Assembly: GCA_973895155.1 (NCBI GenBank)
Contig: OZ316892.1
Location: 23,351,168 to 23,415,167 of the forward strand
From: Marsupella aquatica
Lineage: Eukaryota > Plantae > Marchantiophyta
Length of the DNA: 64,000 bases
Reading direction: 5' to 3'
This document shows, in pieces, positions 8,808 through 58,623 of this stretch; position 1 is the first letter of the stretch, and each line of letters opens with the position of its first letter. The notes under the pieces were generated by a model, which worked only from the letters and a program-made list of their open reading frames with translations, was not told the DNA's origin and ran no database searches. Both the position numbers and the translations under genes were made by a program.

Positions 8808-9113
8808 CTAAACTCACTAGTAGAAACCACCCCATTTTGTGACCAGACCAGTTATGACAGGCACCACCAAAGTATTAGGATTCAGCATCCAACGTTGCGA
8901 TGCTTGCCTTGTATGAGGCCACCACTAGCTAGCTGTAGACTTGTCGTTATTCACCATGTACATAGGAACGTTAGATTTAGGGCTAATGTAGTTTTACGGG
9001 TCAGATTAAGACCCACTCCCGTCTATTCCGCTGGGATGTAATCGGGCCTAGTTGATTAGTGGCCATTCTTCCACTTTCACTTATCATTCAATAAAAAGCA
9101 GAAAAGTTTTTCA

Positions 9114-9125
9114 TGGTATTAGAGC
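9114..9125 (+). promoter_or_regulatory. Primer-binding site (tRNA-iMet 3' end) of the outer Copia
   Basis: TGGTATTAGAGC differs by one base from the canonical TGGTATCAGAGC and directly follows TCA. Confidence 0.75.
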
Positions 9126-9481
9126 TAGATTGCGCACGGACTGATTGCTGCACACTGACTGATTGCACTGCATCTATTATGGTGCGAAGATGAGCAATGT
9201 GAGCAGCACCTCACAATATTCACAGAGCAGCAGCTCACAGGGTGGCAGCTCGCAGAGTAGCGGCGCACACAATGTCAACCTTGATCTTGATTCACTCAAG
9301 GGGCTGAATTATTCCGAGAAGGAGATTTAACTAGATGGATCAAAAAATTTCATCAGTTAAGTTGGTCCTTTAAGGTCGAACGTCAGTTTTGGAAAGATAA
9401 AAGTCTGGTGGGAACTCATCAGTCCAGACACTTCCAGACGAGTATAGCTGAGTCCTGAACAACGGGAGGAGAAGATTGAAA

Positions 9482-9965
9482 CCCAGGTACGCAACTCTCA
9501 TATAATAGACAGGGGTCTATATTTTTATATGGACTAAAAAGTTGGCTATACAAAATAATTAAAATTTGAAAAACCTTGGGTTTTCTACTTTTAAAAATTT
9601 TCAAGTCATATTATAAATGGTTTGGTTTTCTTCATTTTCCATATGAAATTAAAAAATATTCCTATACATGTTGTAATTTTTATTAAAAGATTTTTAAAAT
9701 TATAATAAAAATCCTAAAAAGCTGGCTAGTTTGGCTGTATACCCTTGTATTAAAAAAAACCCATATATACTTTGGTTTTGATCAACTTTTTGCACATCAA
9801 AACATGTTTGGTTTTTTCTTTAAGTTACATTTTTTGATTCCTTGAGTTCAGAGGTACAAGACTTTAGTAGACCAAAATGAAATCTAAGATGGTCAATTGG
9901 ATATAAGGCCATTATAAGGAATTAAAAACTTGCCTTATAAAAAGGGAAGTTGTAGCATACCCGGG
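9482..9965. mobile_element. 484-bp MITE inserted in Copia gag
   Basis: Termini CCCAGGTACGCAAC...GTAGCATACCCGGG with a perfect 8-bp TSD GATTGAAA (9474-9481 and 9966-9973). The gag reading frame resumes on either side. Confidence 0.9.
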
Positions 9966-12900
9966 GATTGAAAGGACCACCTACATCTTCTCGATGACGG
10001 TAAAAGACCACATCATCCCTATTAATTGTTAAGAAGCACATTGATGATCCTGCCAAGTTGTGGTTGCAACTCAAGAGTCATTTCGAATCTGCTGTCCTAG
10101 GCAAACAGCTCGTTTTGCGGGAGAAGCTATCTCTCGTGCATTTATCTGAAGGAGGCAGCCTGGAAGAATACATTCATGAACTAGACTACTTAGTCAATCA
10201 TGCAGCTTGTTGACATTGATTTCCAAATTGAAGATAAGGAGCTAATTTGCATTGCTCTTAAGGGTCTGCCAGCCAGTTGGAGACCATTCATATCTTCATT
10301 TAGCACCATCTTGCATCAGTTTCCCAAGCTCACTTTTTCTGACCTTATTGGCCATCTTGAAGCTGAAGAATTGCAGCGCACATTGGGAAAAATAGAAGAA
10401 GCTGCACTAGCTGTTACCATTATATTAACAGCTATCGTGGCAGCTCCTCCCGCGGACAAGGACGGGGAAGGAGCTACAGGGGAAGAGGACAAAGCGCTCC
10501 ATTGTCCAATGCCAAGAAGCCTGAATCCTGCAATTTCTGTGGCTTCCTTGGCCACTAGGAGAGTGACTGCCTCAAGAAGATCGAAAGCCAAATTAAGGGT
10601 CTACAAACAAAGCACGCTGACATCAAGGTCGAACTCAAGAAGGGGAAGCATCAGGCTCAAGAAGGGGTCCAAGCTGAAGACTACGGTTCTGAGACGGAAG
10701 ATACTCTAGAAAATCTAGAGGTGAACTTCACGGAACTCAACATGCACAAGTCCCGTAATAAGGACTGGCTCATAGACTCATGTGCTAGTGTGCATGTCAC
10801 AGGAAGTAGATCAACTCTTGATCGAATAGTTCCCTACACTTATGCATCCAATGTAACTACTGCTTCTGGGACCCGTGTCCCCATAGCTGGTAAAGGTAAC
10901 ACCAAATTTGGTGCAAATAAAGTGGTGAAAAAAGTTTTGTACGTGCCTGGTATGACAAAAAATCTCTTATCAGTTGGTCAGCTCGCTGATGCCAGTCACT
11001 CTGTCTTGTTCAACTCCAACAATTGCTATGTCTTGGATAAGGAAGTCAGATCCTAGCAAAATCTTCCTCCATGCTGTTTGAGACAAAAGCAATAGCTTGC
11101 ACAGACTCAATTCTTCTCTTCAGGGTAACGCCAAACTTTGTGCAGAGGCCAACCTTTTTGTGGTTCACTTCTCACCTGCTACATCTTCTGTAGCTCAATC
11201 CTCACCTGTTGCAGCACTTCTTCCTTCAGGACTTTCTCAGTCAGCTCCCTTGGCTAAATCCGTCTATCTCAATTGAACCTGTTCCTGACCCACAAGAACT
11301 CCAGCCTCTGGCAAGTCCTCCTTCTCCATCTTTCTCCACTCCAGTTGATCTCATTGATCCCTTTGACCTGGCCGATCAAGTTGCTAGTAGTGATCATGCA
11401 TAATCCCCCTCTCTCCAATCCTGTTGTCTCCACCCTTTTAAAGACCATCACAGACCAGAGAGCTTCCTGTTTGTTTGAGAGAGGATTATATCTTATCCTA
11501 TTGGCCTAGCAAACCTGACATTTGTCTTGTTCAAACTATTGACAATGTCGACAAGAATATCACTTTTGCACAGGCAATCAATGATCTTGGATGGAGTGCC
11601 GCTATGTGTGAAGAATTTGAGTCCCTGCTCAAAAATGAGACCTGGGATATGGTCCCACTTCCTAAAGGCCAAAAGGCTATTTTTGCTAAGTGGGTGTACA
11701 GGGCCAAGCCTCAATTCAATCCAACTCGTCAACGACTTAAAGCTCGACTTGTTGCTCATGGGTTTAAACAATGCTATGGCATCAATTTTGAGGATATGTT
11801 TTCTCTTGTCGTCAACTGGGCCTCACTTTGTCTAATTATTGCTCTTGCTGCAGCTCTAGGTTGGAAATTACATCACATGGATGTAATCACCGCATTCCTC
11901 AATGGCAAACTCAAGGAACTCATCTACATGCTACAGCCCCCAGGTTTTGCAAAACCCGGGTCAGAACACTTGGTTTGTAAACTGAATCGATCAATTTACG
12001 GTCTTTAACAATCACCTCGCGCGTGGTATGAAGAGATGGATGGCTTTCTTTGCAACAACGCTAGATCCGCAGTACGTACAGCGTGCTGACCATAATCTTT
12101 ACTTCATCCATGATAACGGCAGCATTGTCCTGCTACTTCTCTTTGTTGATGATCTGCTCCTCATAATTGGTAATGATCCTGCAAAAATCAGTGCAGTGAA
12201 GACACAGCTCAGCACCAAATACCACATGAAAGACCTTGGGTGTGTCCAACGATACCTTGGGATTGAGTTTGAAAACACTCCTGCTGGCGTCTTCATTCAT
12301 CAAAACAACTATTGCCACAAATTATTGGCTGATTTTGACATGCAGGATTGCAAGCCCGCTGCAGTACCCCTACCGGATGACACTATTCTTACTTCCAACA
12401 CCTCGATAGCTGACGTCGATGTTACTCATTACTGTCAAATTGTTGGTAAACTCATCTATCTTGCCAACACTCGACCTGACCTTGCGTACTCAGTCGGGAT
12501 CCTCAGTCGCTTCATGTCTCGACCTCAGTAGCGACACCTTGATGCTGCCCATCATGTTCTTCATTACATAAAGGCTACAACTGATTATGGACTATTCTTT
12601 CCGTGCTCTAAAACACTCACCCTTGCAGGCTACACTGATTCTGATCATGTAGCATCACTAGTACATTTTATCGCCCTTTTCCGACAGTGAAAGTATCGAA
12701 ACCCTTCGGCAACTTGCGACCAGATTTTTGGAACTTCCGATTACCACAATATCGGTACATGCCATTTTCTGCACATCGGATATAGACCATCGGACAACTA
12801 TCGGAAACACCGATATTATCTTCATCGGACCATCCGTAATCTAAAATATCGGATATTTTACTATCCGATGCCAGAAGTATCGGACCACCACTTTTTCGCC

Positions 12901-20864: not shown

Positions 20865-23800
20865 TCATGGACGAGTCACACCATAAATGCGTTCACTTGT
20901 TGCTTCCTTCCAACTCGTGGTCCGGTCCACCAATACTCGTGTTCGAGGAGGGCGCTCCCTCACAGTAGTGTTCACAGGTGTGCGATTGTATACCTTCCAG
21001 ACATGTCTTCTGATATTCTCGTTCCAATCCATGGCAGCACAACTCAAACGGGCCTCATGACTGGCTGAGAAATGAATGCGCTTGGTCGCATACTTGCCCA
21101 TCACGGAATGGTAGGTCTCTGACATGAAATTCTCTCGGGCCATGGTATAAAACCTCATCTTCGCGGGAGTAATATATTTTCTCATGAATTTTTGCATGGC
21201 CTTATGAGTCTCTCCACCTACATATACAAAAAGTCATAAAATATCAACAATGCTAACCTAAGTTATAACTCACATTAAAATTGCATAATTAGTAAAAGAT
21301 TTACCATTCTCATAGTAATGGTCAACTTGGATGGCTCCAGGCTCCCCAAGATGCTGACAAGGCCGGTCAGATAGTCCTGCACATAATCTGTGATCCCCGG
21401 CCCAATGATCACCACAGTTGCCCAATTCGAAAGCCAAGGATGCAGCATCTCCACCACTGCATAATGAACATTGAAAGTTGTTATTTTTGTCAAAACTAAA
21501 TCATCACATCTGCAACAATTACTACACTTGGATATGTAAAAGCCAAGAAGTCACACCATATTAGCACTATGCATACCTGTTCTTACACCGACGACAACAT
21601 ACGTAGAACCATGTCTTCAGCTTTGTGGCAATGTTGTGCTGAGACAACTCTGGGTACTTGAGGCCACGTGTCGGAATACGTACTAGTTCTCCAAGAGGCA
21701 GCCCACGCATGTCACCTACTTTATGGATGAGTGCTTCCTTCCTAAGAGTAGAGTACCCTCTCACTCCCCTACTCTTCAACCAATCCTGTAACTTCTTAGT
21801 TGTGACTGCTTGCAACTCAGAACGAGATGCAGCAGTGTCAATGTCAATGGTCACAGTGTAGGTTGCTCTCACCATCTTCTCCACAAACTTCTTGATGAGA
21901 TTTTTGGCCTTATGCCACAAGTCTTTCTGGTTCCTAATCCCCATGTCCTCCACAATATTATCAATAGTGGCTTTGTCATCATGGATAACCTCCGTGATAG
22001 AGATCCCTCCCTCTCTCAAATTTTCCAATGCTCTTTCAGTACCCTTGTCCTCCATGTGCCAAGCATTTCTCTCCTCCCTCCTAGTAATTGTCACCATTTC
22101 AATTACCCTATTATCGTCAACATTGAGGATAGAGGTGGTACCATGAAAACCGCTCCGAGAAGAATCCCATCGAGTATCTAAGTACACTAGTAACCCAGGG
22201 TCTGTCATAAACAAAGCACACACACATGCACTATATATGAGAAACAGGTCAACTAAAACTTTGGCTAGAAGAGCATGGTCCTTGAATACCCCAAAAAGCT
22301 GAAGGACCTAAAACAGATAATTACTTACCAAGCTCAGTTGCTCGCCGCTGCTGAATATCATCCTTCAATTCCTGCCACATGTGCCTTTTATTTTCTTCCC
22401 ATTGTGCCTTCACAGCTGCTATCCATCCACCACTAGGTCGGCCACGACCACTCTGAAAATCATGCCAATGAGCTGCAGTAGGAACATGTAAACCAAGATG
22501 TGCAGCAACAGTAGCCAAAGACGTATAGGTGTGGCCAGCGCAAAGGGTGGAATGATACAACTGGGGGGTAATCATAGGAGAACTCCTCCCAGGCTCATTG
22601 TCACCAGTAACAAAAGTCCAGCCATGGCCATCCTCTCCACAACCAATGTGAATCGACCACAACTGATGCAACTCCCTCACTCGTTGAACCCTTGGACTCC
22701 TAGAACATCCATGTATATGACACCAAGGGAGTAGCCTATCAACAAAAGTAGCCAACAAGTTGCGATCAAAAAATGCTACCCTAGCAGGTTGACGAGGCGT
22801 TGCTCTACGAGTCGGGACAAGGTCCGGAGGCTGTGATGGCTGAGAATCAGGGATATGATACTTGTGTGAGTCTGTTTGTGCTGGTGGCCGAGGCCCAATA
22901 TCTGATGATGGCTGAGGATCAGGTGCAATGAATGGCTCCTGGTAGAAGAAGCCCACATACATATATCAAAAATTGTTATTCAGAAATTTGGAATTTGTAC
23001 GGGGAAAGGCAAGGAGAGTGTCAAAGGGAGGGGGGTCAAACCTGAAAGGTATCCTCATTCCCAATGTTGTTAGCTCCTAAAGCTGTAAGAGACTCCGGAT
23101 CATCATCTTGGTAAATGGCATCATCTTCTGCGTCTGATCCGTATTGCTCGGCAATATGCTCCTCCAAAACTACATCCTGCTCAAGAGGTGAATCCCATCC
23201 ATCCTAGAAACAATGTGGGGTAGAATAATTAGTACCCTCAAATATGATTTTACCTAAACCATAAACTTCAAGGGAGTAAAAAAAATTGCTGTTGGTCCTT
23301 GGGTATTGAAGTTATTTTGTTGAAAGACCCAAAAACCTGAACCCAAAGGCATGACTCACATTATGGAATGCACCCTTGTTTGGTTACTACAATGCTGCAT
23401 AACATAACAAAATAAAGAAACTGTTAAGAGTTGGGATACCAATGCTTGGAATAATGTGTCCACTCTTCATTAAGGTGTGGCTTTATATAGCCATGAGGTT
23501 ACATGGTCTAAGGTTAAAGGTAACCTTAGCTTAGGGTTATATGTAAACTATGGTTTACAACACTCCCCCTTGGTTAGTTTATGGGGGTGTAAAGTAACCA
23601 TGTGTTTAACCCTAAGGAATTAAATTGGTATTCCCTTTGATGTAGCCTCATTAAAACCTTGCTGCTTTCTTCTCAAGGAAAGAGTACTACCATCATTACA
23701 TGTGGGGATCCAATCTGTATCCATTTATTTTATGTTTCCTATAGTTTATGGGGGGTAATTATTTGCCATTATATGTGTAAGATGCAATTACCTATCCATT

Positions 23801-26800
23801 ATATGGAATTACTCGTGTAAGATGAACCTGCCTCTATGTAAAATTGTAACCTAAACTAAAACTCGCTCACAAAGGGTTCGTTAGTTCGTAGTTTGTCGAC
23901 GATAATAGAGACGGTGTGTATCGATCGGATTTCCGTGTCGCTTTTTGTTGGTGTGTGCGATGTGTTGTTGTTGCAGCTCTGTGTGCTTGGAGTCTCTGGC
24001 GATGCTTCTCTAGTGTGCTGCGCCATGGCTTTTTGTTTCGCATCCTGGTTGGTGTTGTTGCGGAGCCGACTGAATTCATGGTGGTAGCGTTCAGAAGTGA
24101 GCTGCTGGAACTTGGGAAGCTGAGCTTTAGGTAAACGCGCTCGTTATTTGTGTGCGGGGGTTGCGACACTATGGGCGGCAACTCGTTCCAGGTTCTGTCA
24201 TTTGTTTCGTTTCTTGCGTTCGTCCTTGGTCGTCGTTGAGGTATTTCCTTGTCTTTCTTGGAGTAATGCTGAAAGCTTTATCATTCCTATACCTGCTACA
24301 TGTTCACGGTGGGTAGCGGGCGGTAAAGGTTTCGTAAATATATCTGCTCTGTTATCCTGTGAGCGAATCCATTCGACTTGTATGTTCTTGCCTTGTTGTT
24401 CTTGGGTAAAGAAGAACTTGGGGTCTATATGCTTCGTTCTTTCTGTTTTCATGATGCCGTTAACAATTTGATCGATGCAGGCTTTGTTATCCTCATAGAT
24501 GACAGTGGGCGTAGTGATCGGTGGTTGTCCAGTGCTGGTTCTGATGTGGTTAATCATGCTTCGGAGCCAGATTGCTTCTCTACATGCCTCGTATAATGCG
24601 ATGACTTCCGAGTGGTTGGATGAGGTTGTGGTCATAGATTGCTTAGTGCTACGCCAGGATATCGCAGTTGTGCCTTGCAGGAAGACGTAGCCAGTTTGAG
24701 ATTTTGAATCTTGTGGGTCTGATAGATATCCTGCATCAGTGTATCCGGTGAGGGTATCAGTGGTGTCTTTTGGGAAGAAAAGGCAGAGGTCAGTTGTACC
24801 TTGGAGATATCTGAATATCCGTTTGAGGCCGTTCCAATGGCGGATTGTTGGTTGAGCACTGTGTCTGGCGAGGAGGTTAACTGAAAATGAGATGTCTGGT
24901 CTGGTATGGTTCTCTAGGTACATCAGTGCCCCCACTGCAGATAGATAAGGCTTCTCTGAGCCTAATATGGGTTCGTTTTCCTGTCTGCGCCTGAACATAT
25001 CCTTTTCAGGGTCAAGAGACCTTAGCTCCATTGGTGTCGATACCGGGTAGGATAGTTGCATATTGAATTGTTTGATGATTTTCTCTGTATATGTTGATTG
25101 GCAGATGAAAGTGCCGTTGTGGAGGTGCTCGAATTGTAGGCCTAAGCAGTATGTGGGTTCACCGAGGTCTTTCATCTTGAATACTCCTTGTAGTGTTTTG
25201 ACAGTTTCTTTGGTTATAGTAGGTGTCCCGAATAGGTTCACATCATCTACATATAATGCTAGGATTATAAATTCCTGCTGTTCCCGTTTGATGAAGATAC
25301 AGGGAGCTATATCTGTATTGGTGAATCCGAGTTTAATCATCTCCGTTTGGAACGTTTTATACCATTTCCTTCTGCTCTGCTTTAATCCGTTTATAGAGCG
25401 TAACACTCTGACTGCTAGGGTTGGTTGGCCCTGTCCTGTATTTCCAGTTTGTTTCTTCTGCATATATGTTGTATTGCCACTTTGCATGAGAAGATTTTTA
25501 ACCTGTGTATCAGGTACTATCTGTCGTATGCCCGACATGATTTCTGGATTCAGGTTCTAGGACGTCTCCCCCTGAGTATGTTCTCTCACTCTCTAGATCA
25601 ATGCCTGAGGTGCTTTCATGTATATTTCAGTGTCTAAGGTGCCATACAGGTACGCAGTTACCACGTCCATTAGGATATTAAGAAGTTGATGTTGTATGGA
25701 AAATGATATGAGGTATCTATATGTTATGGCGTCCATCACGGGTGAGTATGTAAGATCATAGTCCCTGCCTGGGACTTGTGTATACCCTTTTGCCACTAAC
25801 CGTGCTCTGTATCGTATGACTTCTCCTTTAGCATTCCGTTTTCTGATGAATGTAAAGCGGGAGTCAGTGTAATTGTTACCTGGGGAAGCCTGTATGAGTG
25901 GTCGGAAGACTTGTCGCTTGATGAGGGCATCCATCTCAGTGTTGATGGCTTCTTGCCACTTTGGCCAATCTGCTCGCTTTTGGGCTTCCTTCAGGGTAAG
26001 TGGATCTGGTGTATCACTGGTTATTTCTTGTACTATGTGGTATACGAATTGTGTATTTATGTCTATGGAATGTCTATTGTATATTGTCCCGTATGGTTAT
26101 ATTGAATGGATATCTCTTCATTGTCCATAATATGGGTATGGGTAAGGTCTGGGTGTACCGTACTTAGTGTGGTGACAGGTTTCGTTGAGGTGGGTTTTCC
26201 CTGCCGTGGGTGTACGTCTTTTGCGCCTGGTGGTCTACCCCTTTTTGTTCTTGGGGCTGTCTCTGTGGCGAGATCCTTGGATATCTGCACGCGTGCAGGT
26301 ATGTTTGCTGCTTCAATATGTGACCTTGTCACGTTTGCGGCATCATTAAATGCGTCTGGGATTTTTGTTAACATCTCATTGAGGTGAAGGAGTCGCCTCA
26401 CTTCTTCATCTGCTCTCTTGCTTCTCGGGTCTTGGTTGATGAGGGTCTGGTTTTGCCAGTTTAAGTTCTGGCGGTTTTGGTTATATAGAGTTGATCCACT
26501 TGATAATGCAGGGAATTGGTCTTCATAGAAGTGACAGTGTTGATATCGAGCTTTGAATAGATCGGATGTCGTGGGTTCCTATGGATGTAGAATCGAATCC
26601 TACATATATGCCTGGATGTCTTTGGGGTCCTATTTTGGTCTTTTTAGGCCCTAAGGTCGGTACCATGACCTTGCACCCGAATATGCATAGGTGTGATAAT
26701 TCGGGGGGCGTTCCGAATGCTAGGTGATAAGGTGTCTTCGAATTATATGCTGAAGGTCTGTATTTCAGTAGTGTTGATGCATGGAGGATGGCGTGGCCCC

Positions 26801-29800
26801 ATGCTGATAATGGTAAATTTGAGTGCATTAATAGTGGTCTGGCAATCATTTGGAGTCTTTTAATAACGGATTCTGCTATTCCATTTTGAAAGTGTACGTG
26901 GGGTATAGAGTACTGAGTATCAATCCCTGCTGTCCAGCAGAAGTCGTCGAAGGCTTTGGATGTAAATTCTCCTGCTCCGTCAACTCGTAATATGCGTGTG
27001 GGGTGCTCAAGGAACGCTTTCAATTTTAAGATATGCGCAAGTATTCTTGCGAATACCATATTACGGGTGGAGAGTAAGGAAATTTGTAGCCATTTTGTTG
27101 AGGAGTCGATGAGTACCAGGAAATATTTGAATGGCCCGCTTGGAGGGTCGATGGGGCCGCATACATCTGCATTGAGCTGCTCCAAAAAGTTGGGGATCTT
27201 GTAGACTATTTTTGGTATCGATGGGCGTGTTATCATCTTGCCCTGTGAGCAGGCCATGCACTGTGGAGCCATGGCGTTTGGTTTGGCCGTCTGTGGGATT
27301 CCTTTGGAGTCCCTAATTATTCTGGTGTACATATTAATGCCTGGGTGGCCGAGTCTGCAATGCCAGGTATATGTGATATCCGATGTATCCTTTTCAATGT
27401 GGTATGATTGTATCTTAGCTGCATATAGTCCAGGTGGGATTAGTGGTAAGTTCTCCATAATATGTGGTAATCCTTCCTTGTTCTGTACTAGTTGTAGGAT
27501 TTCAGTTTCGCCTTGTTTTGCTGTTCTTAGTTCATAGTTATTCGCGCGGATATCCTGAAAGTTGATGAGGTTCCTGGTAGCTGTAGGGGCGTATATAGCT
27601 GCTGCTATCGTAATTTTGGTCCCGCCTGGGAATATAATATGCGCTTTTCCTTTGCCTTCTTCTATTTGGTTGGGGCCTGCGATAGTTGTCATCGGTCTAG
27701 ATGATGGGGTGATAAAGTCAAAATATTTGCTTTGTGTCAGTATTGTATGTGACGTTCCGCTATCAATAATGCATATATTAGGGTCAGTTAATGGTGATGT
27801 ATACAGGTGTGAGATAGCAGTATGTGTTTCAATTGGGGCGTCTGCAGGATCTTGGTATGTCGCTATATTTTCTTCGATTTCCATATAGTTGCCTTGTGGG
27901 TTTTGTCTCGTTAATATGCGTTCATTTGTATAGCGTTGTGCCACTTGGTCAGATGCTCTGCATATCTTCCTGATGTGGCCGATCTTACCACATCTGTAGC
28001 ATAGTTTCTGATTATCGTTTGTTGGGTGATTTTGTGGGTTTCGCCATGTGCCCCTGCTTCTGTTGGTGCCACGGTTCCAGGTAGTTCTTTGTGTGGGGAG
28101 CGGGTTTCTGCCCTGGTAGGGGTATCTCCCTTGTCCCCTGAATTTTCCTCTGCCTCCCCTGAATGGTTTTCTTCCTCTTGGGTTGTCTCGTCGCCCGTCT
28201 TGGTAATTTCCATAGTGTGATTCGGGTCGATTGGGTGGTGGTTCTGATCCTACTGGTATTTTTCTTGCGTTATGTAGGGCTACAATTTGTTGTTTCTCTT
28301 CGACTAATAAATGTGCAATGAGGTCGGAGTAGGTCGTAAAATTCATATTTCGGTATTGGGTTCCCAGGGCTATATTAGCTTCTGGGAATGTTGACAGTGT
28401 TTTATCAATGCGGTCGTTATCATTTACTGGGTGGCCGCACATTTCTAGTTGAGATGTGATTCGGAATAAGGTGCTGTTATAATTTGCAATTGTTGTGTGG
28501 TCCATGACTCGCAGGTTGTGCCAGTCCCTGCGTGCTTCTGGGAGCCATATTTCGCACATGTGGTCGAATCTGGATTTGAGTTGATCCCATAGCTTGCGGG
28601 GATTTACCTCATTCATATATTCGTTCTTCAATTGTGGTGATAGGTGTTGCCTCAATAGAAACGCGGCTTTAGCTTTTTGTTTGAGGGTTAGATTTGTATC
28701 TGTATATAGTGTATCTTCAATTTCTTGAAATGCAAAATATGTTTCGACATCTGTGATCCATGTAAGGTAGTTTGATCCGTCTACCTTTAATGCAGGGAAG
28801 TGTAATTTCTCTATGGTATTCATTCTTAATACAATTTGGGATTGTAATGTTTAGTTACAATTGAATATGGAGGTTGCAGGGATTTGGTATTGGTATACCA
28901 ATTATGGTTGTCGTGTGTCTATCCTTGGTCTTCGGTATGATGAATCTTCGATGGCGCGTCTCGTATTAAATTGCGCTCAATTGGATGTGTAGCGATTTCT
29001 AGTTGATGGGGAAAATTTTGGGCTAAACAAGCGATATGGAGTAATTCTAATTGGTGAGGTGTTCTACATGTTCTCAGTGCCTGTACATTGCCCAAAATAG
29101 CGATGTGCTAGCGCTGAGAGGGGAAAAGAAAGGTGGGGGTCGGTTTGGGCGGTTATTGGGAGGAGGGAGAAAAAAAAGTGCCTTTTAAGAGTATTTTACT
29201 CGTGAAAACATCAAGGTGATCGAATTACCAAAAGACTGATTTCAGAAAAAAAAATGACTAGAGCATACTCGTGCTGATAACGTGTTAAGAGTTGGGATAC
29301 CAATGCTTGGAATAATGTGTCCACTCTTCATTAAGGTGTGGCTTTATATAGCCATGAGGTTACATGGTCTAAGGTTAAAGGTAACCTTAGCTTAGGGTTA
29401 TATGTAAACTATGGTTTACAACAGAAACTATGATTCACACTATTTGTAAGGGGAGAGTACTATGTGCTTGTTGGTATGGTGGTTTATAATGTGTGGACAT
29501 TGGTAGTCACAGTTTATGCAAGTATTGGACAATGTGTTCTTGTTGCTATTTACCAGGGCCTTTGTTATTGCTTGACATATAGATTATAATGTGTGGACAG
29601 TACCCTGTGGTGCGTCCCATGGCTCCCTAAACCCAAGAAACCCCCCAGCTCAAGCCGATTCCCGCAGGTTTCGTGCTTGGCGAGGCCGTTTCCGCGGCTT
29701 AGCGGCATGGGACGCTGCTAACCTTCTACTACTACTATTAACATTTTACACACATATACTGGACAGATCCTTCATCGGGTCATGAGATACGTAGCCGGCC

Positions 29801-32800
29801 TAATATAGGCCTTCCCCTGTCTTCCCCTCCATCTTGTTAGGTATGTTTGGATTCCGCCGCCGGAATGATCCCCAATAGGCTTGGTTAAGCCGCTAAGACC
29901 TCTCTCAGCTCGACACATCCAACTCTCACTCCCCTGCTTACTTTCCTTCCTTCTGTTGATGTGGGCACTCTTCACACAAGTTAATGCGACACACAAATAG
30001 CAAAATGACTCATTCTGACTGAGTCATACCATGCACTTGCCATACAAACAGTACATCTCATACACAAGTTCTGCGAACTAAGCCGTGAGGCCAACTCTAT
30101 TCAGCTCTTAGGCATGAGGAAACATGAATATACACAAGGGTCACTGTATGACTAACCGAGAGCTTCTCGTACTACTTGATCCCAGCCCGGCTGGTGCAAA
30201 CTAAAAACTTGCTAAAGAAGAGGCCCTGAGCTCCCCGCTGCCCAGGTACTTATCCTGGTAGTGGATCCGCCCTTCTTTGCATCGTAAGCCTAATCTACTT
30301 AACAGTAATCTACTTGCCCGAATCTACCTATGTACAGCAAGGCAGGAGCACAAGTGTTGCTTCTACCAGTGGGACCGCAATCCCACTAAGCTAAGTGTCA
30401 GGGCCGCTCCTGGTTCTGATCCTAATCCTAAACGTGGAGATCCGTGCCCGCCCTGCCCACTCACGCCTCCTCCCTCCACGTCCGCCCTCCCTAAAAGGAA
30501 CGGCGCCCTTGCACCGTCACGACACCGGTGGTGGATCCTCAATGGACGCCCCCAACACATCCTCCTCAGCCACTGCCGTTGGCCCGCCTACTGACAGATT
30601 ACCTGCCATTGACCGAGTCAACTCTCCATCGGCCTGACTGGGTCCACCTTCGGCTTCAGCCTCGACACCGGCCTCGGCAATACCCACGGCTTCGGCTTCA
30701 GCCACTCCCACGGCTTCGGCTTTAGCCACTCCCACGGCTTCGGCTTCCCCTTCCCCTAGGGTAGTTGGATCCTTAGCCGTGACCCTGTCTGGGGTCGGTG
30801 CTGGGTCTACCTCCTTGATCACCACGGCCTGTGAAGTCGTATTACTCCTTGACCCTGAAGGTTTCCGCTTCTTCTTCGTTGGTGGCTCGGCAGCTGGTCC
30901 CTTCCCCTTCCCACTTACCTCCGGCACTGGTGCAGGTGGCGCGGCTTGTCCTTCGGCAATTACCACCCCTGGTAACTGGTTTGTCCCAACAGGAGATGGA
31001 CCTGCTGCAGCTAAGCATTTAAATACTGCGGCTTGTTTCTTCAACCGCTCTGTTTGGTTGTCGGCCCGCCGCTGTAGGTTCTCCATCTTCCTCGTGATTT
31101 CCTCCAACTCCTCTTGGGTTTCATCCAGGTCCTTACGTGCCCCCTCCAGCTCGTTTTTGGCCTCCTCCTGCTCCCTGTGGGCTTCCTCCAATTCCTTCTT
31201 CAAGGTAGCCCTCTCCTCCTGGGTTGCTCTTAGCTCCTTGTCGAGCTCTGCAATGATGACAGACTCCATCTGGTTCATCTTGGCGTAAGTCTGTTCGAGC
31301 ATCTCGTCCTTCTCCCTTAGGTCGGCCTTGAAGCTGGCCGTCAGGGACGCAAGCTCCTGCTGCAGCGCCATAATCCCTTGATAGGATTTCCCTAACTCGA
31401 CCTCCTTCTGCTCAAGGGCTCCGCGGATTTTCTCGAGCTCCCCTTTCAACGCCCATTCCTTTCTTTGGGTCTCTGCCATGGCCCGACTGTTGGCTGTTAT
31501 GTGGGCCTCCTCTGTATTCTTCAGCTCTTGCTTCCACTTTTCCCTTTCTTTGATCGTGTCGGCCAACTCTTCCTGCGTCTGAGTCAGTTTATCCTTGATA
31601 TTCTGATTATCAGCCTGCGCGGCGTCCAACTGCCCCTGCATGATGTTCAGCTCATGTTGTTTAATCCGCAGTTCATCTTGGGCTTTCTTGGCCGCCCTTA
31701 GATCTTCAATCTCGGCTTCCATCCTCCTAAGCCGCCGAATGACCTCATCCTTCTTGCTTCTCTCTAAAGCCACCGCTTCTTCTAATTGGTGCTTCTCCAA
31801 CTGCTCCCTATGGAAAAAGGGTCCTACCTCCAACTCCTCTCCAAAGATGTCGAGCGCAAGTTCCCCACACATCTCACCATACTCCATGGCTCTATTCTTA
31901 GCGTAGGTGGAGTAAGTAGAAGTGATCGGCATCGCCCATCGTGGCCTCTGCTCCCAAGCCGTCCTGCGGATCTCTTCAATCGTGGCTAGAGGTTTGCTTC
32001 CTTTTTCGGCTAGCCGCCTGATGTCCTCCGGCCAATCTCCTCCTGGTAAATCCTTTTCCTTAGCCAGGGCGGCCTCTTCCTCCTGCTTGATTCGCTCCTG
32101 AAATTCCTGCACCGTCTGTTTTATGCCGTCGAAGCTCGGGGGAGCAACATCTGGTGGGGGAGACTCAGGGCTACTCTGCTGGTTGGGGTCCCCTCGCACT
32201 ACCCTTGGAAGTGTGGGGACAAACCGGCCACAGGTCCTTACTCCTGGAACGTGATGGTCCGACCCATAGCCGGAATTATCATGGCTGCAGTCCTCCACTG
32301 CCTCCTCTACCTCTTGGACGTCCGGCTTCTCCCTCTCCTCTTCGTTGGTAGGAGCTTCAGGCAATTCTGCCTCAGATTTGGAGCTTGAGGTTCCCACGTA
32401 CATTCGAACACCTGGCTTGGATTCCGGCCTGATTCTCTCCTTGTCTCCAGCAAAGGGGTTTTCTCTTGTGAGCCGGTGTAGGCCTACCTCTGTAGTAGTG
32501 TCCTGCATTGTTGCCGTTGCCGTTGTTTTTGCCGATGCCGATCTCTTTTCTTTCTCCAGTAGTTTCAGCAGACTCTGCATGCCTGGTTGCTGCATCGGCA
32601 AGTCTTCCTTCCTGGGCCTAAACACCTGCTCGATCGTAGGACTAACAGGTGGTTGAGGCTTCTCAGCCAACGGCCTCGGCGTTGGAGCTTCCTCGGGTGC
32701 CCTTACCTGCAGGGGAAGTACCGGGGCAAAAGTCTGACCTCTGGCATACCGGCACAACAGCGGCATGTGATAGCCAAGCCGCGACACGCTCCCCATGCCG

Positions 32801-34837
32801 ATTACCTGCTGCTCCTCCTTTAAGATCTTCTTCAATTGGTTGAGGAGGTACCCGTTGTAGTCCCGGCTTGGGTCTGGCCTTTCTGCCAGATAGACCTGTG
32901 CTTTGCCGATCTCTGCCCTCGGCAAGTTACAATGCATGGTCACCCGCAAGAAGTCGATCATCTCTCCTATGTGCGGGTTGGTGCAGGTGTTCCGGAAGAA
33001 GCCATTCTTCGTTGATGGCCCGGGGAACGACCGGAACTCCTTGTCAGGCAAGGTCTTCCTGGTATCAACTTTGGTCTTATTGCCCATCGGCAAGCCAAAC
33101 ACTTCGGCAATCACCTTGGGAGTAAGATAGAAATCCTTCCCATATATCCTCGTGCAATTGGTCTCGGGTTCCCATGACCCCACGAATTCTAATAGGTCTG
33201 ACTCCGGTACCTCCGGCTTCAGCCATGGTAATCTTACAAAGGCCTCCAAGCCGGATCCGGCCATGAAGCCTTGGTACTTCTTGGTCTGCATGGCCGTAAA
33301 GCATGCATCCTCCTCCCGTGCAAAATGTAGTTGCACCTCCACCGGTAGGGTTGCCGCCCAGCCCTTCCAGGTGTCATCCCTGGTTGGAATGGCCTTGATG
33401 GGATCGACCTCCTCCTCTTCGGCTTCTCCCTGCCTCCTGCTCTGCTGCTCGGCTGGCTTCTTTGGTGCCGCCGACCTCGTTCTTTTTGCCGGGGTGGCTT
33501 CATCGTTGACGGCTCCCTTCCTCTTCATCTCTGCTGCCGTGGAGGTTTCTCCTAGCACCGTTGCCTGGGTCCACCTTTCCGTGCTACCCTTTAATTCCCA
33601 GTGTATGTCATTGCAGTTCTTGATGGCCTCTCGGATGCCGACGACGCTGTCTTTGCAAAACAGAAGATCGTCGAGTTGATTGGAAGTAGGCGTCCACAGG
33701 AACTCGTCCTTGATGAGTTCGCCTCCTAAGAAAGCCGTCTTCTGCAGCTCCCACAATCGAGCGAGCTCCTGCCGTTCTCGAGCTGCCCTTTCTGACTCCT
33801 CGTCCTCGTAAGTCTTGATGTACTCAGTTGCCCGTTCGAACAGGCATCCCCAGAAATGTGCCGCTTGATTGACGTTGCTCATACCCTCCTTAGGTTGATC
33901 GTCGGTATCTACTCTCTCCCCGAGTGCTTGCCTAAGCAGCTGACAGTAGTTGGCCTCCCGTAGTCGTCTGCCTAGTTCGTGCTCGCAAATGAGCCACCAT
34001 CTCCTGCAAGCGCTCCTTACCCCTCTCCTCTGCCGGTCCTTCTTCCCGTTGATCCTTCCTAGCCGCCGACGCTTAACGCACCCTAACCCTAATCGGGTTT
34101 TCACCCTCAGCCTTACCTCCGGCCTCTGCCCGGGTTCCATGGTTGCCCCTAATTGTTTATATTTTCCTTGTTTTGTCACTATACTAAGGTGTTCCTAGGG
34201 TGCCTTCCTGCTTTACCCACTTAACCGGCCGAGTGATTCCTGTCTAGGCATCACATACCCTAATTTTGTTTACTATTTCACTTGTGGTTTATTAGGACAA
34301 ATATTTGAGTACCCTGATATTTGTTATTATAAATAAGAACCTATATATATTTGTTTCTGCCCATTATGCATAGTTGACATAAGTACCATCAGCGTGAGTA
34401 AAAACAAATAATGATAAAATGGGCAAATGCTAAGTGAATGAAAGAAGGTATCCACATACCTGACGTGGTGGTCGTGAAGGCTGACCCATCTGCTGCTCAC
34501 TCGTGGGCGATGGTTGTGCCTCGGGCCCAATTGGAGCTGCCTCTGATGCTCGCCATACCCGAAGCTCCTGAATTGTCGGTCGCGCACAATCAAGTAACCA
34601 TGTGACAACAGTGGAGTGTGTGGTATCCTGTCCAAGTAGAGCTCTAAGGTCCTCCCACTCATCCCACCGATCTAGTGGGACCCGGATTTCGGGCTTGGCA
34701 TCCGGTCTCCTCCTTTTCTTGTAGTCTATGTCATCACTCGGATACCGCTGTCTTGGTGGACCACCTCCCCGGGGGGGGGGGGGGCGATTCCGCCTCCCAT
34801 CCGGAAGAGGGGGGGGGGGATGGCCTGCCGCACTCAT
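20865..34837 (-). CDS. Kolobok-like DDE transposase, 6 exons, 759 aa, apparently intact frame
   Basis: Exons 34837-34460, 23203-23042, 22938-22329, 22201-21577, 21456-21305 and 21217-20865 are all GT-AG, phase-compatible and total 2280 nt. Motifs include LDTRWDS (D1), VIHDD (D2), KDLWH (DxxH), HWAGDHRLC..C and SETYHSVMGKYATKRIHF...ARLSCAAMDWNEN (E). A SAP/HeH-like segment LQDWLKSRGVRGYSTLRKEALI is also present. Confidence 0.82.
23422..29423 (-). mobile_element. Ty1/Copia Bianca-lineage LTR retrotransposon
   Basis: Identical 141-bp LTRs (23422-23562, 29283-29423) with TG..CA ends and TSD GAAAC. PPT AGGGGGAG lies next to the 3' LTR. The PBS CGTTATCAGCACGA is complementary to the anticodon region of tRNA-Ile (half-tRNA priming). 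The gag starts FPALKVDGSNYLTW. Confidence 0.93.
24198..28823 (-). pseudogene. Bianca gag-pol polyprotein (gag, CCHC knuckle, protease, integrase, RT, RNase H) split by frameshifts
   Basis: ORFs 26523..28823, 26063..26401, 25593..25934 and 24198..25538 carry CYRCGKIGH, IIDSGTSHT, WHCRLGHPG, LRVDGAGEF, MDVVTAYLYG, LYVDD and ADIFTK. Confidence 0.9.
29606..34255 (-). mobile_element. 4650-bp solo-LTR-like insertion containing a long ORF
   Basis: Termini TGTGGTGC...GCATCACA with a perfect 5-bp TSD TACCC (29601-29605, 34256-34260). No terminal direct repeats and no gag/pol were found. Confidence 0.75.
30517..34179 (-). CDS. 1220-codon intronless ORF: plant-transposon (Athila ORF1/PMD-like) domain plus long coiled coil; the true start may be an internal ATG (e.g. 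33882)
   Basis: GLEAFVRLPW...DLLEFVGSWEPETNCTRIYGKDFYLTPKVIAEVFGLP resembles Ty3/Gypsy accessory-ORF domains. An E/K/Q/L-rich heptad region follows, and there is a TATAAA on the minus strand near 34155-34160. Confidence 0.7.
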   Translation of the reverse strand: MTKQGKYKQLGATMEPGQRPEVRLRVKTRLGLGCVKRRRLGRINGKKDRQRRGVRSACRRWWLICEHELGRRLREANYCQLLRQALGERVDTDDQPKEGMSNVNQAAHFWGCLFERATEYIKTYEDEESERAARERQELARLWELQKTAFLGGELIKDEFLWTPTSNQLDDLLFCKDSVVGIREAIKNCNDIHWELKGSTERWTQATVLGETSTAAEMKRKGAVNDEATPAKRTRSAAPKKPAEQQSRRQGEAEEEEVDPIKAIPTRDDTWKGWAATLPVEVQLHFAREEDACFTAMQTKKYQGFMAGSGLEAFVRLPWLKPEVPESDLLEFVGSWEPETNCTRIYGKDFYLTPKVIAEVFGLPMGNKTKVDTRKTLPDKEFRSFPGPSTKNGFFRNTCTNPHIGEMIDFLRVTMHCNLPRAEIGKAQVYLAERPDPSRDYNGYLLNQLKKILKEEQQVIGMGSVSRLGYHMPLLCRYARGQTFAPVLPLQVRAPEEAPTPRPLAEKPQPPVSPTIEQVFRPRKEDLPMQQPGMQSLLKLLEKEKRSASAKTTATATMQDTTTEVGLHRLTRENPFAGDKERIRPESKPGVRMYVGTSSSKSEAELPEAPTNEEEREKPDVQEVEEAVEDCSHDNSGYGSDHHVPGVRTCGRFVPTLPRVVRGDPNQQSSPESPPPDVAPPSFDGIKQTVQEFQERIKQEEEAALAKEKDLPGGDWPEDIRRLAEKGSKPLATIEEIRRTAWEQRPRWAMPITSTYSTYAKNRAMEYGEMCGELALDIFGEELEVGPFFHREQLEKHQLEEAVALERSKKDEVIRRLRRMEAEIEDLRAAKKAQDELRIKQHELNIMQGQLDAAQADNQNIKDKLTQTQEELADTIKEREKWKQELKNTEEAHITANSRAMAETQRKEWALKGELEKIRGALEQKEVELGKSYQGIMALQQELASLTASFKADLREKDEMLEQTYAKMNQMESVIIAELDKELRATQEERATLKKELEEAHREQEEAKNELEGARKDLDETQEELEEITRKMENLQRRADNQTERLKKQAAVFKCLAAAGPSPVGTNQLPGVVIAEGQAAPPAPVPEVSGKGKGPAAEPPTKKKRKPSGSRSNTTSQAVVIKEVDPAPTPDRVTAKDPTTLGEGEAEAVGVAKAEAVGVAEAEAVGIAEAGVEAEAEGGPSQADGELTRSMAGNLSVGGPTAVAEEDVLGASIEDPPPVS

Positions 34838-41889: not shown

Positions 41890-42900
41890 CCTGTGCCTCG
41901 TAGGACCTCTCCTCCATTGGTCTCTAATGACTTATGGGTAAACACACTTTTGGCTGGTGCAAGAGAGTTGTTAGCAGCATCATCAGATCCCCCTCAATGT
42001 AGCCTCCCTTGTGTTGATCTGGAGACTATACCAGTTCCATCTAGGGTTGGTCGCACCCGAGCACGTTCCCAAAGACAACAGTGTCGTTATGAACCCTTGG
42101 GTGTGCATGAGACCGAGGACCAAGTTCTGCACCATACTCATAGAGTACCGCCAGGAGAGGACTATGTGGAAGTGGAAGGGAGGTTGGGGCTTTCATATGT
42201 CACTGGGAAGGCATTGACAGTCTTGAAGGATTTCTCATCTGAGAGATTCAAAATACCCCCTGGCCTAACCACTGACACTCCTATCCACATATGGGGTCAC
42301 CAATGGATAGTGAAGACATCCTCCCTAGGTCCTGACATAGGATTTGGCGTATTTTCCTTGGAGGACATTTTGGTCCCTGCAAAGCCATGGCCCCGAGGTT
42401 ATGATGGGGAGCACCTATTTCCATATATTGGTCCCGTATACACTTCAAAAATTTGGAACATTCTATTGCGCCAACACCCATCTTGGGGTGTCTATGCATT
42501 GCAAATGGATTCTGATCCAGATGAGGTCATGCGGAGGCCTTGGCATTCTCGGATGATTGATGGGGACCCTGTTTGCTCCGACAACATAGCCGGGTACATT
42601 AATAGTACTCATGGGAGAGGGAGAGGACTTAGGCCTAATGTTGAGTGGATACAAATATTTGGTCCACCTAGAGAGCCTTATTATGTAAAACACATGGATG
42701 ACCATGTCATGACTGTAGCCATTACAACCATTAGGGCTGGCGAGGAGTTGTTTTGCGACTATGAGTGGGATGCTCCCAAGAAAGCATTCCTTTCTCACCC
42801 TGTGAAGGGCAGACATGGATATACCACCTCTTTTGTTGAACATAAAATACATGACAATGGTTTCCAAACAAATTTGGTTCTTTGTATAAATAAATCCTAA
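41890..42900 (+). CDS. SET-domain protein exon inside intron 1 of CACTA TnpD
   Basis: VKTSSLGPDIGFGVFS (GxG), IDGDP...NIAGYINST (motif III-like) and IRAGEELFCDYEW (ELxxDY). The acceptor AG at 41888-41889 is in frame with the TnpD exon-1 donor at 41790. Confidence 0.82.
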   Translation, partial: PVPRRTSPPLVSNDLWVNTLLAGARELLAASSDPPQCSLPCVDLETIPVPSRVGRTRARSQRQQCRYEPLGVHETEDQVLHHTHRVPPGEDYVEVEGRLGLSYVTGKALTVLKDFSSERFKIPPGLTTDTPIHIWGHQWIVKTSSLGPDIGFGVFSLEDILVPAKPWPRGYDGEHLFPYIGPVYTSKIWNILLRQHPSWGVYALQMDSDPDEVMRRPWHSRMIDGDPVCSDNIAGYINSTHGRGRGLRPNVEWIQIFGPPREPYYVKHMDDHVMTVAITTIRAGEELFCDYEWDAPKKAFLSHPVKGRHGYTTSFVEHKIHDNGFQTNLVLCINKS

Positions 42901-43627
42901 ACCCTAAACCCTAAAACACTTGTCTCATTGTGGGTCTCTTCTAATATTTATGTATGTTTGTGAACTGCTAGAATGCGTATGTTCAACCAGATGTGGGGGT
43001 ATTATCACGAGCAATGCGACAACACCTTGTCGAGGCCATGAAAGATTGGCGTAGGGCTCAAGCTTCAGCGAATGAAGATATCCCTCCTGAGCAAGTATCT
43101 AATGCCACCAATGACATACTTGAGGATGAGAGGGCCATGGATGATCTCATGCACCAGTTCTATGACGTAGAGGATGGTGACCATGGTATGGGTGATGCAT
43201 TTGACACCACAACACATGCTCATCATGACATTCCTTCACGTTGAGGTTCCCCTCTAGACAATGGGAGGAAGCTCGTGACCATGCACAAACAAGGATTTTT
43301 GAGGGGTCACAGCTGTCTCGACTATCAGGAATAATGTTATTGTTGAACTTGCAACAAAGACATGGTGCAATCAATCTCCTTCTTGATGATCTTTTCAGGA
43401 CTTTGCATAGTCGGATTTTTCCAGAAGGGAACTGCTTGCCTAGTTCCTGGAAAGCAACAAAAAAGGTGTTGAAATCCATAGGTCTCAAATATGAAGTTAA
43501 ACATGCTTATTTTCCTCTTATCCCTAGATTACGGCACCAGTACCGATGTGCGGAGTTGGCTGAGTATATGGTGTGGCATTCCAAGAACCGGTCAGATATG
43601 ACTTCAGATCCGCCCACCATGCGTATG

Positions 43628-43924
43628 CTCGGGGGTCTCACTATATGGGGACCTCCCCATCGCCTGCGACGTTTTTAGGCCTCGGACCCCCTAAAATGTA
43701 AGAAAAAAATTTTATTTTTTAACCCCTATAAAGTTGGAATATTCTTGGAATATTCTAAAATTTGGATTAAGAAGACCCTTATATTCTTATAAGTCTCAAA
43801 ATTGAATTTAAAAGACCCTATTGTTCTTCTACAAAAATTCTTAAGTCTTCCCTTAGAACCAATAAAATGACCCTATCCTTCGTCGCACGTGATATGCCAT
43901 TTTTGTGGAAGTGAGACCCCCGAG
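43628..43924. mobile_element. 297-bp MITE, copy 2, inserted in the TnpD coding sequence
   Basis: Perfect 14-bp TIR CTCGGGGGTCTCAC with 8-bp TSD TGCGTATG. Near-identical to 40008-40304. Confidence 0.93.
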
Positions 43925-46900
43925 TGCGTATGATGGTGGACTCACCTGCCAATAGGTTTGTGGAGGACCGATGGGGTGAGTTCAAGACAAATCCACGTCA
44001 TGTACGTCTAGGTTTGGCATCAGATGGGATCAGCCCCTTTGCATTGGCAGGGAAGGCCCAACCATACTCAGTTTGGCCAGTAGTCCTTACAAATTACAAC
44101 ATCCCTCCATGGATGGCCATGAAGAAGGGTCATTTGCTGCTCTCAATGATTATCCCAGGCCCCAAACAAGTAAAAAAGATTGATGCTTACTTGCAACCAT
44201 TGTTGGAGGAGCTTCAACAACTATGGAGAGGAGTGGATTTCTATGATGGTCGAGTGCTTACGGGTGGTTTACCTCGTGAATTTAAATTGAAAGCCATCTG
44301 TATGTGGGCCATACATGATCTTCCGGGTATGTGGAAATATACCTCATCCCATATAAATTATGCATGGTTTGTCATTTCTGGATAATATACCTCACCCCAT
44401 ATTAATTATGCCTTGGTTTATCATATATTGGAGCCCTGGCCATTGTTTAATGTATGCAGTGGGTGTGAACATTGTAGGGTTTGGATATATCTCTGGGTTG
44501 CAGGTCTCGGGATACCGAGCTTGCCCAACTTGTGGGCACGATTTGGAGGGAGTGGCGCGCCCAAAGTCTACCACCCTACGGAAGATAGTTTACATTGGTC
44601 ACACAAAGTATCTCCCCCCAGAGCATGAATGGAGGCGTGACCCATTCTTATACAACACAGATGATGGCCAACCAGACACACGCCCTCAACCAGTGCCAAG
44701 GGATCCACATTATTGGAAAGATGTATGGGATAGAGTGACAGACCCGGATGATCCATTACAATTGGCCCGATGTGGCATGACTCGATTGTCTGCATTAATG
44801 TCAAAGCTGCCATATTGGGCTGAGATGCCAATTAACCATTTGTTTGACCCTATGCACATTGAGGGGAATGTTGGGAGGTCATTGATTCGCCATCTATATG
44901 GAGAGAAAGACAACAACTGGAGAGAGAGTTGTGAGGAGATGGGGAGATGGCGATGCATGGCCCTCATGGGTTTTGGCCATCTATGGATCCTCCTAATGCC
45001 CCCCTGACTATTCACCCTCCTTGGGTATTGACCAGAGGTGAGCGGACTGAGTTTCGCAAACGTATAGGGTCAATGAGGTTTCCCACAGGTTATGGCGCCA
45101 ATCTTCGTAAGGCATTTGGGGGTGATGATTCTCCAAAATGGCCATCTTACCTGAAAATACATGATTTTCATCGGTTACTCGAACATGTCATTCCAGTTGC
45201 AATTATTGGATTGGGTAGTGAGGATCTTCGAGATGCCCTATGGTCATTAGGTAAGCTCTTGAGGTGGGTGTGTCAGAAAGAGGCGAATGAGGATGAGATT
45301 GCAGCAATGGACCTTTTTGGAGTGGAGGTATTCTTTGATGGTCAAGTTCACTTCCTCCTCCACCTAGTGCGTGAGGTTGCGATTGCAGGGCCGGTACATT
45401 GTTGTTGGATGTACTGGGTATATAGAGCAGTATATGGGAGTGATGAAGTCATATGTGTCAAATCATGCAAGAGTGGAAGGTAGCATTGTTGAGCGTCATC
45501 TTGGAGCAGAGAGCATGTTTTATTGTACAAACATTGTAGCTACACTTGATCCCAGAGCTCCAAGGGGCTGGATAGACGAGGCATCAAGGGAAGCAGACTT
45601 TGAGGATGACCGTCTCACAGGGGCAAAGGGAGAACGACTTATGGACTCAACTGAGCGTCTTCAACTTACTACATTTATGTTGTATAACTCGCCTGAGATT
45701 GTGGGAGATTGGACAACTTTTTATGAGGAGGAAAAGGCAAATAGTCGTCGGCCACGCAACTTCCCCAAGTTTGTCCCATACATGAGGGCAAAGTTGACAG
45801 AGATTGATGCCTTGTTGGAGCAAGGGGAGAGTGTGTCAGACTTCCCTTTGGTTACAGACAGTTTTCGCACCTTGGTTCATGGACCATTACTTACGGTGAC
45901 AACTCGGACAGCCATGTGGTCAAAGGGAAGACATTTTTGTGTGCAATGACTTGATGACAAGAGGGCAGCTACACAAGATTGTGGGCTCATGGGTTGGTTC
46001 ATCCAAGATTCACAAAGTAGCATATCTGATAGGAATCCAATACGCTCTATGGTGGCCCACTATGGAAAGATTGAAGAGATATTGAGTGTGAAGTACCATG
46101 CGCACACCACTTTGGAGGAGGTGGTGTTGAAGTGCAAATGGTTTTGGATGAACCTTGTTGGCCAAAACCAAACTTGCAAAGAAGATGCTTGTGGGTTCAC
46201 ACGGTTGAAGACAGGTGCAAATAGTGTCATTAGCTCAACTTGGAGAACCTCTGATCCATTTGCATTCCCCCATCATCTTGAGCAGGCCTTCTATCTTCCC
46301 TATCCCGATGATCCTGAGTGGTCCATTGTCATGAGTTATATTCCACGATCACGATCCATAGTCCAGGAGCGACCCAATGTAGTTGTAGTAGAAGATTTGG
46401 ACCCTGAGCCTTGAGGTCCTTGCTAGTGTACCTTGGGACCAATCAAATAGGACCACCTCTGAATGTTTACTTTTACCGGCATTATTTTTATGATTGTTTT
46501 ATTTCATGTACCCTCTCCTATGAGAGTGACCACATTTCTTAATAAACTTATGAATGTTGGTTTTCCCACACTCTGTCCGATGTAGTGACCAATGGAAAGT
46601 ACTCGGAAACATAGTGCCTTACAATTGTGGCAATATCCGATTCAATCTGCATCGGACCCCTCATGAAAGTTATCGGAGATATTTCCGATCCTCTCCGCAT
46701 CGGAACACTTCCGATGCCAAAAATAACGGAAATAGGGACCGATGGCTTTTGTATCGGAAAAATAATATGCGATGTAAAAATAATGGCAAATTGCGTAAGG
46801 TAAAATATCGGAACTGTGCGACGGTATTAGTATCGGAAGAGTGACGAGGCACAATATCGGAGCATTGGAAAAACACTGAAAATGTACTAGTGCATGTAAG

Positions 46901-55396: not shown

Positions 55397-55561
55397 TAGG
55401 AGTCCTGGGGTGGCCGAGAGCGTTGTTAGATCCGTAAGGACACGGTTTTAGTAGCCATTTGTTGGCACATTCCTTGGTTCTGTGGCACTTTGTCTCGCAG
55501 GTTGGGGTTGAAGTGGACTGATTTTGTGGTATGTTCTCAGGTTTGAAGATCAGGCAAAAAC

Positions 55562-58500: not shown

Positions 58501-58623
58501 GAGAGTGAGGAAGACATTCCTCAGGCCGGAGAGGATAGCGTGGTTGACGATGCCACAATTGTTCCAGAATTGACGACAGGGACTTCCGGAACCGAGGAAG
58601 GGGAAGCGGTCCCTTTGGATTAG
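55562..58623 (+). CDS. ParB-like + beta-class N6-adenine/N4-cytosine DNA methyltransferase 1 (3 exons, 955 aa, intact)
   Basis: Exons 55562-57391, 57482-57957 and 58062-58623 are GT-AG, in frame and total 2868 nt. A ParB/Srx-like YYVIGGNHS motif comes first. Catalytic motif IV LVDIPYG precedes YQKP...VLDICSGSGT...GRHCVAIEID (motif I), which is the permuted order of the N6_N4_Mtase family. Confidence 0.88.

Follow-up and report, generated by a model that had tools for sequence, protein, structure and literature searches.

How can a unit with the termini of a long terminal repeat (LTR) consist for the most part of one open reading frame (ORF) of more than 1,100 codons? This question is raised by a 4,650-bp unit (29606..34255) in a stretch of 64,000 nucleotides from the liverwort Marsupella aquatica (assembly GCA_973895155.1, contig OZ316892.1, positions 23,351,168 to 23,415,167 of the forward strand), hereafter the window, whose first letter is position 1. 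A preliminary description had proposed a solo LTR of a Ty3/gypsy family with its accessory gene inside the LTR or, alternatively, an unknown non-autonomous element mobilised by an integrase. The explanation that we regard as probable is the solo LTR of an abundant plant retrotransposon, likely Ty3/gypsy, with an intact accessory gene; that the unit is a solo LTR carrying the ORF inside it appears, on its own, very likely.

The ends of the unit were as described: TG..CA, with 8-bp termini that are inverted at 7/8 positions, between two copies of the 5-bp target-site duplication (TSD) TACCC. These boundaries are independently fixed, because the empty site is present in public sequencing runs. 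Among 16 such runs, 14 contain part of the unit and six contain more than half of its words; the latter represent four organism codes and four studies, one possibly the source organism. No RNA run is listed among the 16, which has no bearing on whether the unit is expressed. Contigs from six of the 16 runs (X1, X2, X3, X4, X6 and X7) were placed on the unit; all run-based counts below refer to this set, and to the best 15 of 109 joints and 24 of 1,420 loose-end rows. In X1 and X2, contigs pass directly from 29600 to 34256, omitting 4,655 bases (the unit plus one TSD copy), and one X3 contig has the same empty site, which is thus found in 3/6 runs. The features that define the unit are:

29606..34255, minus strand (retroelement sense): probable solo LTR, with its polypurine tract (PPT) side at 34255 and its primer-binding site (PBS) side at 29606
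29601..29605, no strand: left TSD copy, TACCC, from the sequence; the empty site skips the unit plus 5 bp
34256..34260, no strand: right TSD copy, TACCC, from the sequence and the empty site
29606..29613: left end of the unit, TGTGGTGC, the 3' LTR end (..CACA) on the minus strand, followed in other copies by a shared PBS-side motif
34248..34255: right end of the unit, GCATCACA on the plus strand and TGTGATGC on the minus strand, the 5' LTR end, preceded in other copies by a polypurine tract and 2 nt

No second match to the unit was found within the window. Its two ends do not repeat each other either, as had been noted before: a comparison of its first 1,200 bp with its last 1,200 bp gave no terminal direct repeat above 34 bp, and the best direct match (80% over 35 columns, E 0.014) is at chance level. 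The public runs contain many other copies. In X1 and X2, summed contig depth climbs several hundredfold at both termini, from 33-2,426 in the flanking bins to 140,000-1,250,000 within the unit; this depth is a rough guide and not a copy number. The unit is a member of a very abundant family that shares these exact ends. Several joints connect the unit ends to internal unit positions, as expected of self-nested copies.

What lies beside the ends in the other copies bears on the nature of the unit. At the 5' end, the TG is preceded on the minus strand by the polypurine tract AAGTGGGGAG and then TA. This tract stands beside 34255, in loose ends behind 34257, in 6 contigs of X1 (agreement 0.68) and 3 contigs of X2 (1.0), that is in 2 of the 4 runs that cover this end. 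At the other end, the loose ends before 29606 have consensus sequences that agree at 12/30 columns, of which 8 are consecutive (ATCTAGCG), at a fixed offset in X2, X3 and X4, which carry three organism codes; about 2 identical columns would be expected by chance. This PBS-side motif is backed by 33 and 38 contigs in X2, 19 in X3 and 4 in X4 (3/6 runs), with a low agreement (0.37-0.58) and no TGG start. It was not shown by X6 (2 contigs), no X1 row for this end is among those listed, and X7 has no contigs on the left end, which does not prove the absence of a motif copy. The two recurrent neighbours are not a TSD pair and therefore mark a PPT side and a PBS side, with the minus strand as sense. 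Since the copy in the window is flanked by the TSD on both sides and the others by PPT or PBS-side motif, this copy is, in all likelihood, a solo LTR.

As to the primer, no tRNA gene was detected in the window, metagenome scans gave 0 tRNAs matching the PBS-side motif, and the LTR holds no complement of the motif beyond chance that could point to self-priming. The motif presumably resembles the 3' end of plant tRNA-Asn, with two mismatches, which a check of literature and supplements did not confirm. The PPT junction gave 0 matches in the metagenome scans and the internal region was not recovered.

The ORF shares the sense of the element. From stop to stop, its minus-strand frame spans 1,225 codons, and 500 base shuffles reached 354 at most; from its first ATG it encodes 1,207 aa, so that the earlier estimate of about 80% of the unit and over 1,100 aa holds. 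The TATA box was also placed correctly, about 95 bp from the right end; what needs correction is its relation to the start codon. This box is only 21 nt upstream of the first ATG, and the relative P0008 (see below) starts no more than one residue away from Met87. Translation therefore more probably begins at Met87, which would give a product of 1,121 aa, encoded by about three quarters of the unit and preceded by a leader of some 250 nt. In this putative leader, at 34081-34092 on the minus strand, TTAGGG occurs twice; we take these two telomere-like units to be telobox-like. At the opposite end, the last 185 nt of the LTR fold at -70.9 kcal/mol (z -3.09), and 0/200 shuffles were as stable. The features of the LTR and of the predicted protein, including a basic cluster that resembles a nuclear localization signal (NLS), are:

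30517..34140, minus strand: sense ORF; 1,207 aa and 78% of the unit from the first ATG (34140), 1,121 aa from Met87 (ATG 33882)
34156..34161, minus strand: TATAAA box at unit position +95, the sole perfect TATAAA in the unit; putative promoter of the accessory gene
29802..29807, minus strand: second TATA-like box, TATATT, at +4449, 200 bp from the 3' end; putative promoter of the genomic RNA (U3/R border)
29612..29715, minus strand: long hairpin at the 3' end of the LTR, in R/U5 position
33403..33879, minus strand: N-terminal helical region (aa 88-246), common to the relatives P0006, P0008 and P0010
32728..33399, minus strand: conserved orphan domain (aa 248-471), 41% identical in P0002; weak leads to Transposase_32/ATHILA/VANC-type folds
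31021..31788, minus strand: long charged coiled-coil-like region (about aa 785-1040), from a heptad scan and a sub-cut-off match to the ATG16 coiled coil
30862..30876, minus strand: KKKRK basic cluster after the coiled coil, NLS-like, a predicted function

Is the ORF truly part of the LTR? Were the unit instead derived by deletion or recombination from an ordinary element whose LTRs are short and whose extra ORF is internal, the case that would have overturned the earlier proposal, the ends should recur as direct repeats, the terminal bins should be deeper than the ORF and a frequent joint should connect the two ends. Such an origin would agree with the plant extra ORFs that PMC6317226, PMC11963269 and PMC7264820 describe, in the parts accessible, as internal, and internally deleted versions do occur: one X6 contig joins 29659 to about 32824, an internally shortened LTR that has retained its 3' end together with the beginning of the ORF. 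Nevertheless, the unit ends carry no direct repeat; depth stays roughly level between the termini and the ORF, the terminal bins not exceeding the ORF bins in four runs; the strongest of the best 15 of 109 joints has a depth of 448 against 140,000-1,250,000 inside the unit, so that no dominant bypass of the ORF is among them; and X6 contigs tile the ORF, one of them extending from within it as far as the precise 5' end. We thus consider this derivation very unlikely. Even less credible is a stand-alone element with short inverted ends, not an LTR, moved in trans by an integrase or a transposase. The TG..CA termini, their imperfect inversion over 8 bp and the 5-bp TSD suit integrase chemistry in general, but such an element is not expected to have a polypurine tract and a second neighbour, unrelated as a TSD, recurring at its ends. 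Together with the TSD and the flat depth, the PPT and the PBS-side motif support a solo LTR with the accessory ORF within it; the case for the position of the ORF is strong rather than final, as fragmented contig graphs could hide a bypass joint.

Two further explanations accept the solo LTR and differ in how the ORF is expressed or in what the full element contained. A single promoter at +95 might drive everything, so that the ORF would lie in a giant R and head the genomic RNA before gag, like an Ogre ORF1 shifted into the repeat. This would fit the only perfect TATAAA of the unit, and sense 5' ORFs encoding PMD and coiled coil are known in Ogre-type elements (PMC4408406, in part). It would, on the other hand, require a minus strong-stop DNA about 4.5 kb long and a gag that is translated downstream of an ORF of 1,100 codons, and the second TATA-like box and the hairpin sit where a short R-U5 would be; we judge it unlikely, and the ORF probably belongs to U3, not to a giant R. 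An equally unlikely family is a non-autonomous one (LARD- or TRIM-like), with PBS and PPT, no gag-pol and the ORF as its only gene, moved in trans. PPT and PBS-side motif are just as compatible with it, and no search made linked a gag-pol to the unit; it would, however, alter the internal region only, and the solo-LTR reading stands with it.

In keeping with the preliminary description, the Pfam scan found no gag or pol in the unit protein, and none of gypsy type in the 49 other ORFs of the window that were scanned. We infer membership of Ty3/gypsy because of the 5-bp TSD, the size of the LTR and the type of protein (after the accessible part of PMC6317226). The unit shares with the OTA superclade (Athila/Tat/Ogre/Retand) a very long LTR, a 5-bp TSD and an extra ORF, although LTR size and TSD are weak classifiers for this superclade (PMC6317226, in part). 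An autonomous gag-pol partner is presumed.

We searched for relatives of the protein by several routes. Word-index protein searches returned none, and only a full HMMER scan of 1.84 billion proteins yielded them, with 23 matches of which 22 are plausible; the other, P0017, is a bacterial protein with Ig/cadherin repeats and was dropped as spurious. The relatives align to aa 88-246 and aa 248-500, the closest (P0002) at 41% over 224 aa. Three of the ten that were looked up have a species name, and because all three belong to the liverwort Calypogeia fissa (25-29% identity), the alignments suggest a protein lineage of seed-free land plants. Conservation of the ORF, which had been put forward as a check, is also apparent within the family, as judged from the best 12 of 39 indel rows and the best-supported 40 of 654 substitution rows. 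Of the seven best-supported indels within the unit, six are of 1-2 bp and map to the 911-bp non-coding tail, and the remaining one, in the ORF, is of 3 bp; 14/29 ORF substitutions are synonymous (9.0 expected, P 0.038) and none creates a stop. Altogether, this is modest evidence for selection on the ORF.

The leads on the type of protein are weak. No Pfam match was above cut-off, and the PMD, Transposase_28, Transposase_32 and Athila ORF-1 families were unmatched by the unit protein or its relatives. The neighbour clusters of the protein in the atlas are Transposase_32 (0.87), ATHILA (0.86) and Transposase_28 (0.78), and VANC21 ranks 2 of 48,161 chains compared, a weak match with the longest alignment (161 residues) among those listed. 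The fold predicted from the single sequence is unusable (pLDDT 37.5), Foldseek gave no match at E <= 0.001 in PDB and BFVD, the PDB sequence search gave one chance match only, and there was no relative among viral contigs. No transmembrane stretch was found either (maximum 19-residue hydropathy 1.09), which does not agree with an env-like protein. The atlas neighbours and VANC21, as weak leads, point to the Transposase_32/Athila-ORF1/Tr28/VANC group of plant transposon accessory proteins. With slightly less than even confidence, we propose a PMD/VANC-like role in binding chromatin or DNA against silencing.

We propose that the unit was left by recombination between two 4.65-kb LTRs of an abundant plant retrotransposon. 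The protein would enter the nucleus, oligomerise through its coiled coil and bind the DNA or chromatin of its own family, as VANC does for VANDAL (PMC5735166, in part), thus serving the element, probably against silencing. Its gene would be part of U3, be served by a separate TATA box at +95 and start at Met87. The genomic RNA would be initiated from the second TATA-like box at +4449, giving a short R and U5 with the hairpin, and the two transcripts would share one poly(A) region at their ends. Reverse transcription would place U3 at both ends, hence two gene copies per full element, and recombination between the LTRs would leave one complete cassette, predicted to be expressed and able to act in trans.

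The superantigen gene (sag) of mouse mammary tumour virus (MMTV) is much shorter than this 1,100-aa ORF. Like it, sag is a protein gene in the LTR (U3) with a described internal U3 promoter, and it survives mostly in solo LTRs (490/527 contigs; PMC4667437, in part); MMTV is a vertebrate retrovirus, whereas the unit belongs to a plant retrotransposon with a predicted soluble protein, and we claim no homology. Extra ORFs of plant LTR elements are located in the internal region in the accessible text of PMC7264820 and PMC11963269. Those of non-chromovirus Ty3/gypsy elements comprise Ogre ORF1 (PMD), the antisense ORFs of Retand, Grande and RIRE2 (Transposase_28) and Athila ORF-1 (PMC6317226, PMC4408406, PMC7264820, PMC11963269, each in part), and the known layout in Tat elements is PMD or Tr28 plus a coiled coil (PMC4408406, in part). 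The unit resembles them in its globular domain with coiled coil, its NLS-like cluster and its putative own promoter (as in excerpts on Grande gene23), as well as in its 5-bp TSD and the LTRs of up to about 5 kb that partial sources give for the same group; it differs in that the sense ORF is wholly within the LTR and in that none of those Pfam families matches at E <= 1. The length of 4.65 kb falls within the 1.9-6.5 kb range of the giant Ogre LTRs, but the extra ORFs of Ogre are internal and its long LTRs are treated as non-coding (PMC6431247, accessible part). With VANC of the VANDAL Mutator elements and the PMD proteins MAIN/MAIL1, the unit protein may share a weak fold kinship and a coiled-coil extension, and VANC is transposon-encoded and trans-acting, as proposed for the unit protein (PMC5735166, PMC13547354, in part); VANDALs, however, are dicot DNA transposons, and the targets of VANC form tandem repeats, of which none was seen in the unit. 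Among the titles listed by exact-phrase searches of the open-access literature, none was of a plant element whose LTR encloses a long ORF completely. Plant extra ORFs, LTRs of 5-6.5 kb and the U3 ORF of MMTV are thus known singly, and these searches did not find them combined at this size; size and the plant accessory-protein type are what set the unit apart.

Other mobile elements surround the unit. A complete young copia element (23422-29423), with identical 141-bp LTRs, a GAAAC duplication and a frameshifted pol, ends 180 bp to the left, and both were inserted in the same multi-copy host repeat. As it is complete, with LTRs and a duplication of its own, this copia was ruled out as parent of the unit and is a separate insertion. 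A second, degenerate copia remnant (Pol_BBD, RVT_2) is at 10559-12528, and nested long inverted repeats (I2-I7, I9), MITE- or foldback-like (MITE, miniature inverted-repeat transposable element), are at 7643-9937. On the other side, the region 41890-46411 has a SET-domain ORF (41890-42900) beside broken CACTA pieces (Transposase_21, DUF4218, DUF4216). Two ORFs for N6/N4 DNA methylases (PF01555), at 58054-58620 (+) and 62053-63999 (-), with E 1.4e-8 and 3.4e-7, look like transposon-borne bacterial-type methylases in a plant; they flank a DUF7869 transposase-like ORF (60241-61881), a second DUF7869 ORF is at 51303-53051, and a 637-aa ORF without assignment is at 55547-57460.

LTRs are usually regarded as non-coding, and the formation of solo LTRs is a plant route to deleting retrotransposon genes. 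Here the product of the deletion is an intact gene of more than 1,100 codons, in a family that is abundant in at least four organism codes. Annotation pipelines would call such solo LTRs host genes, and the unit offers a compact, self-contained test object for the role of the extra ORFs of plant Ty3/gypsy elements. A bolder proposal, which we hold to be rather unlikely, is that a plant lineage moved a PMD/VANC-like anti-silencing gene into U3, so that every solo LTR, which recombination usually leaves when the host purges such elements, would remain complete as a gene, acting in trans and sustaining the activity of the family. If this were true, purging by the host would feed amplification, which could explain the abundance of the family across several species.
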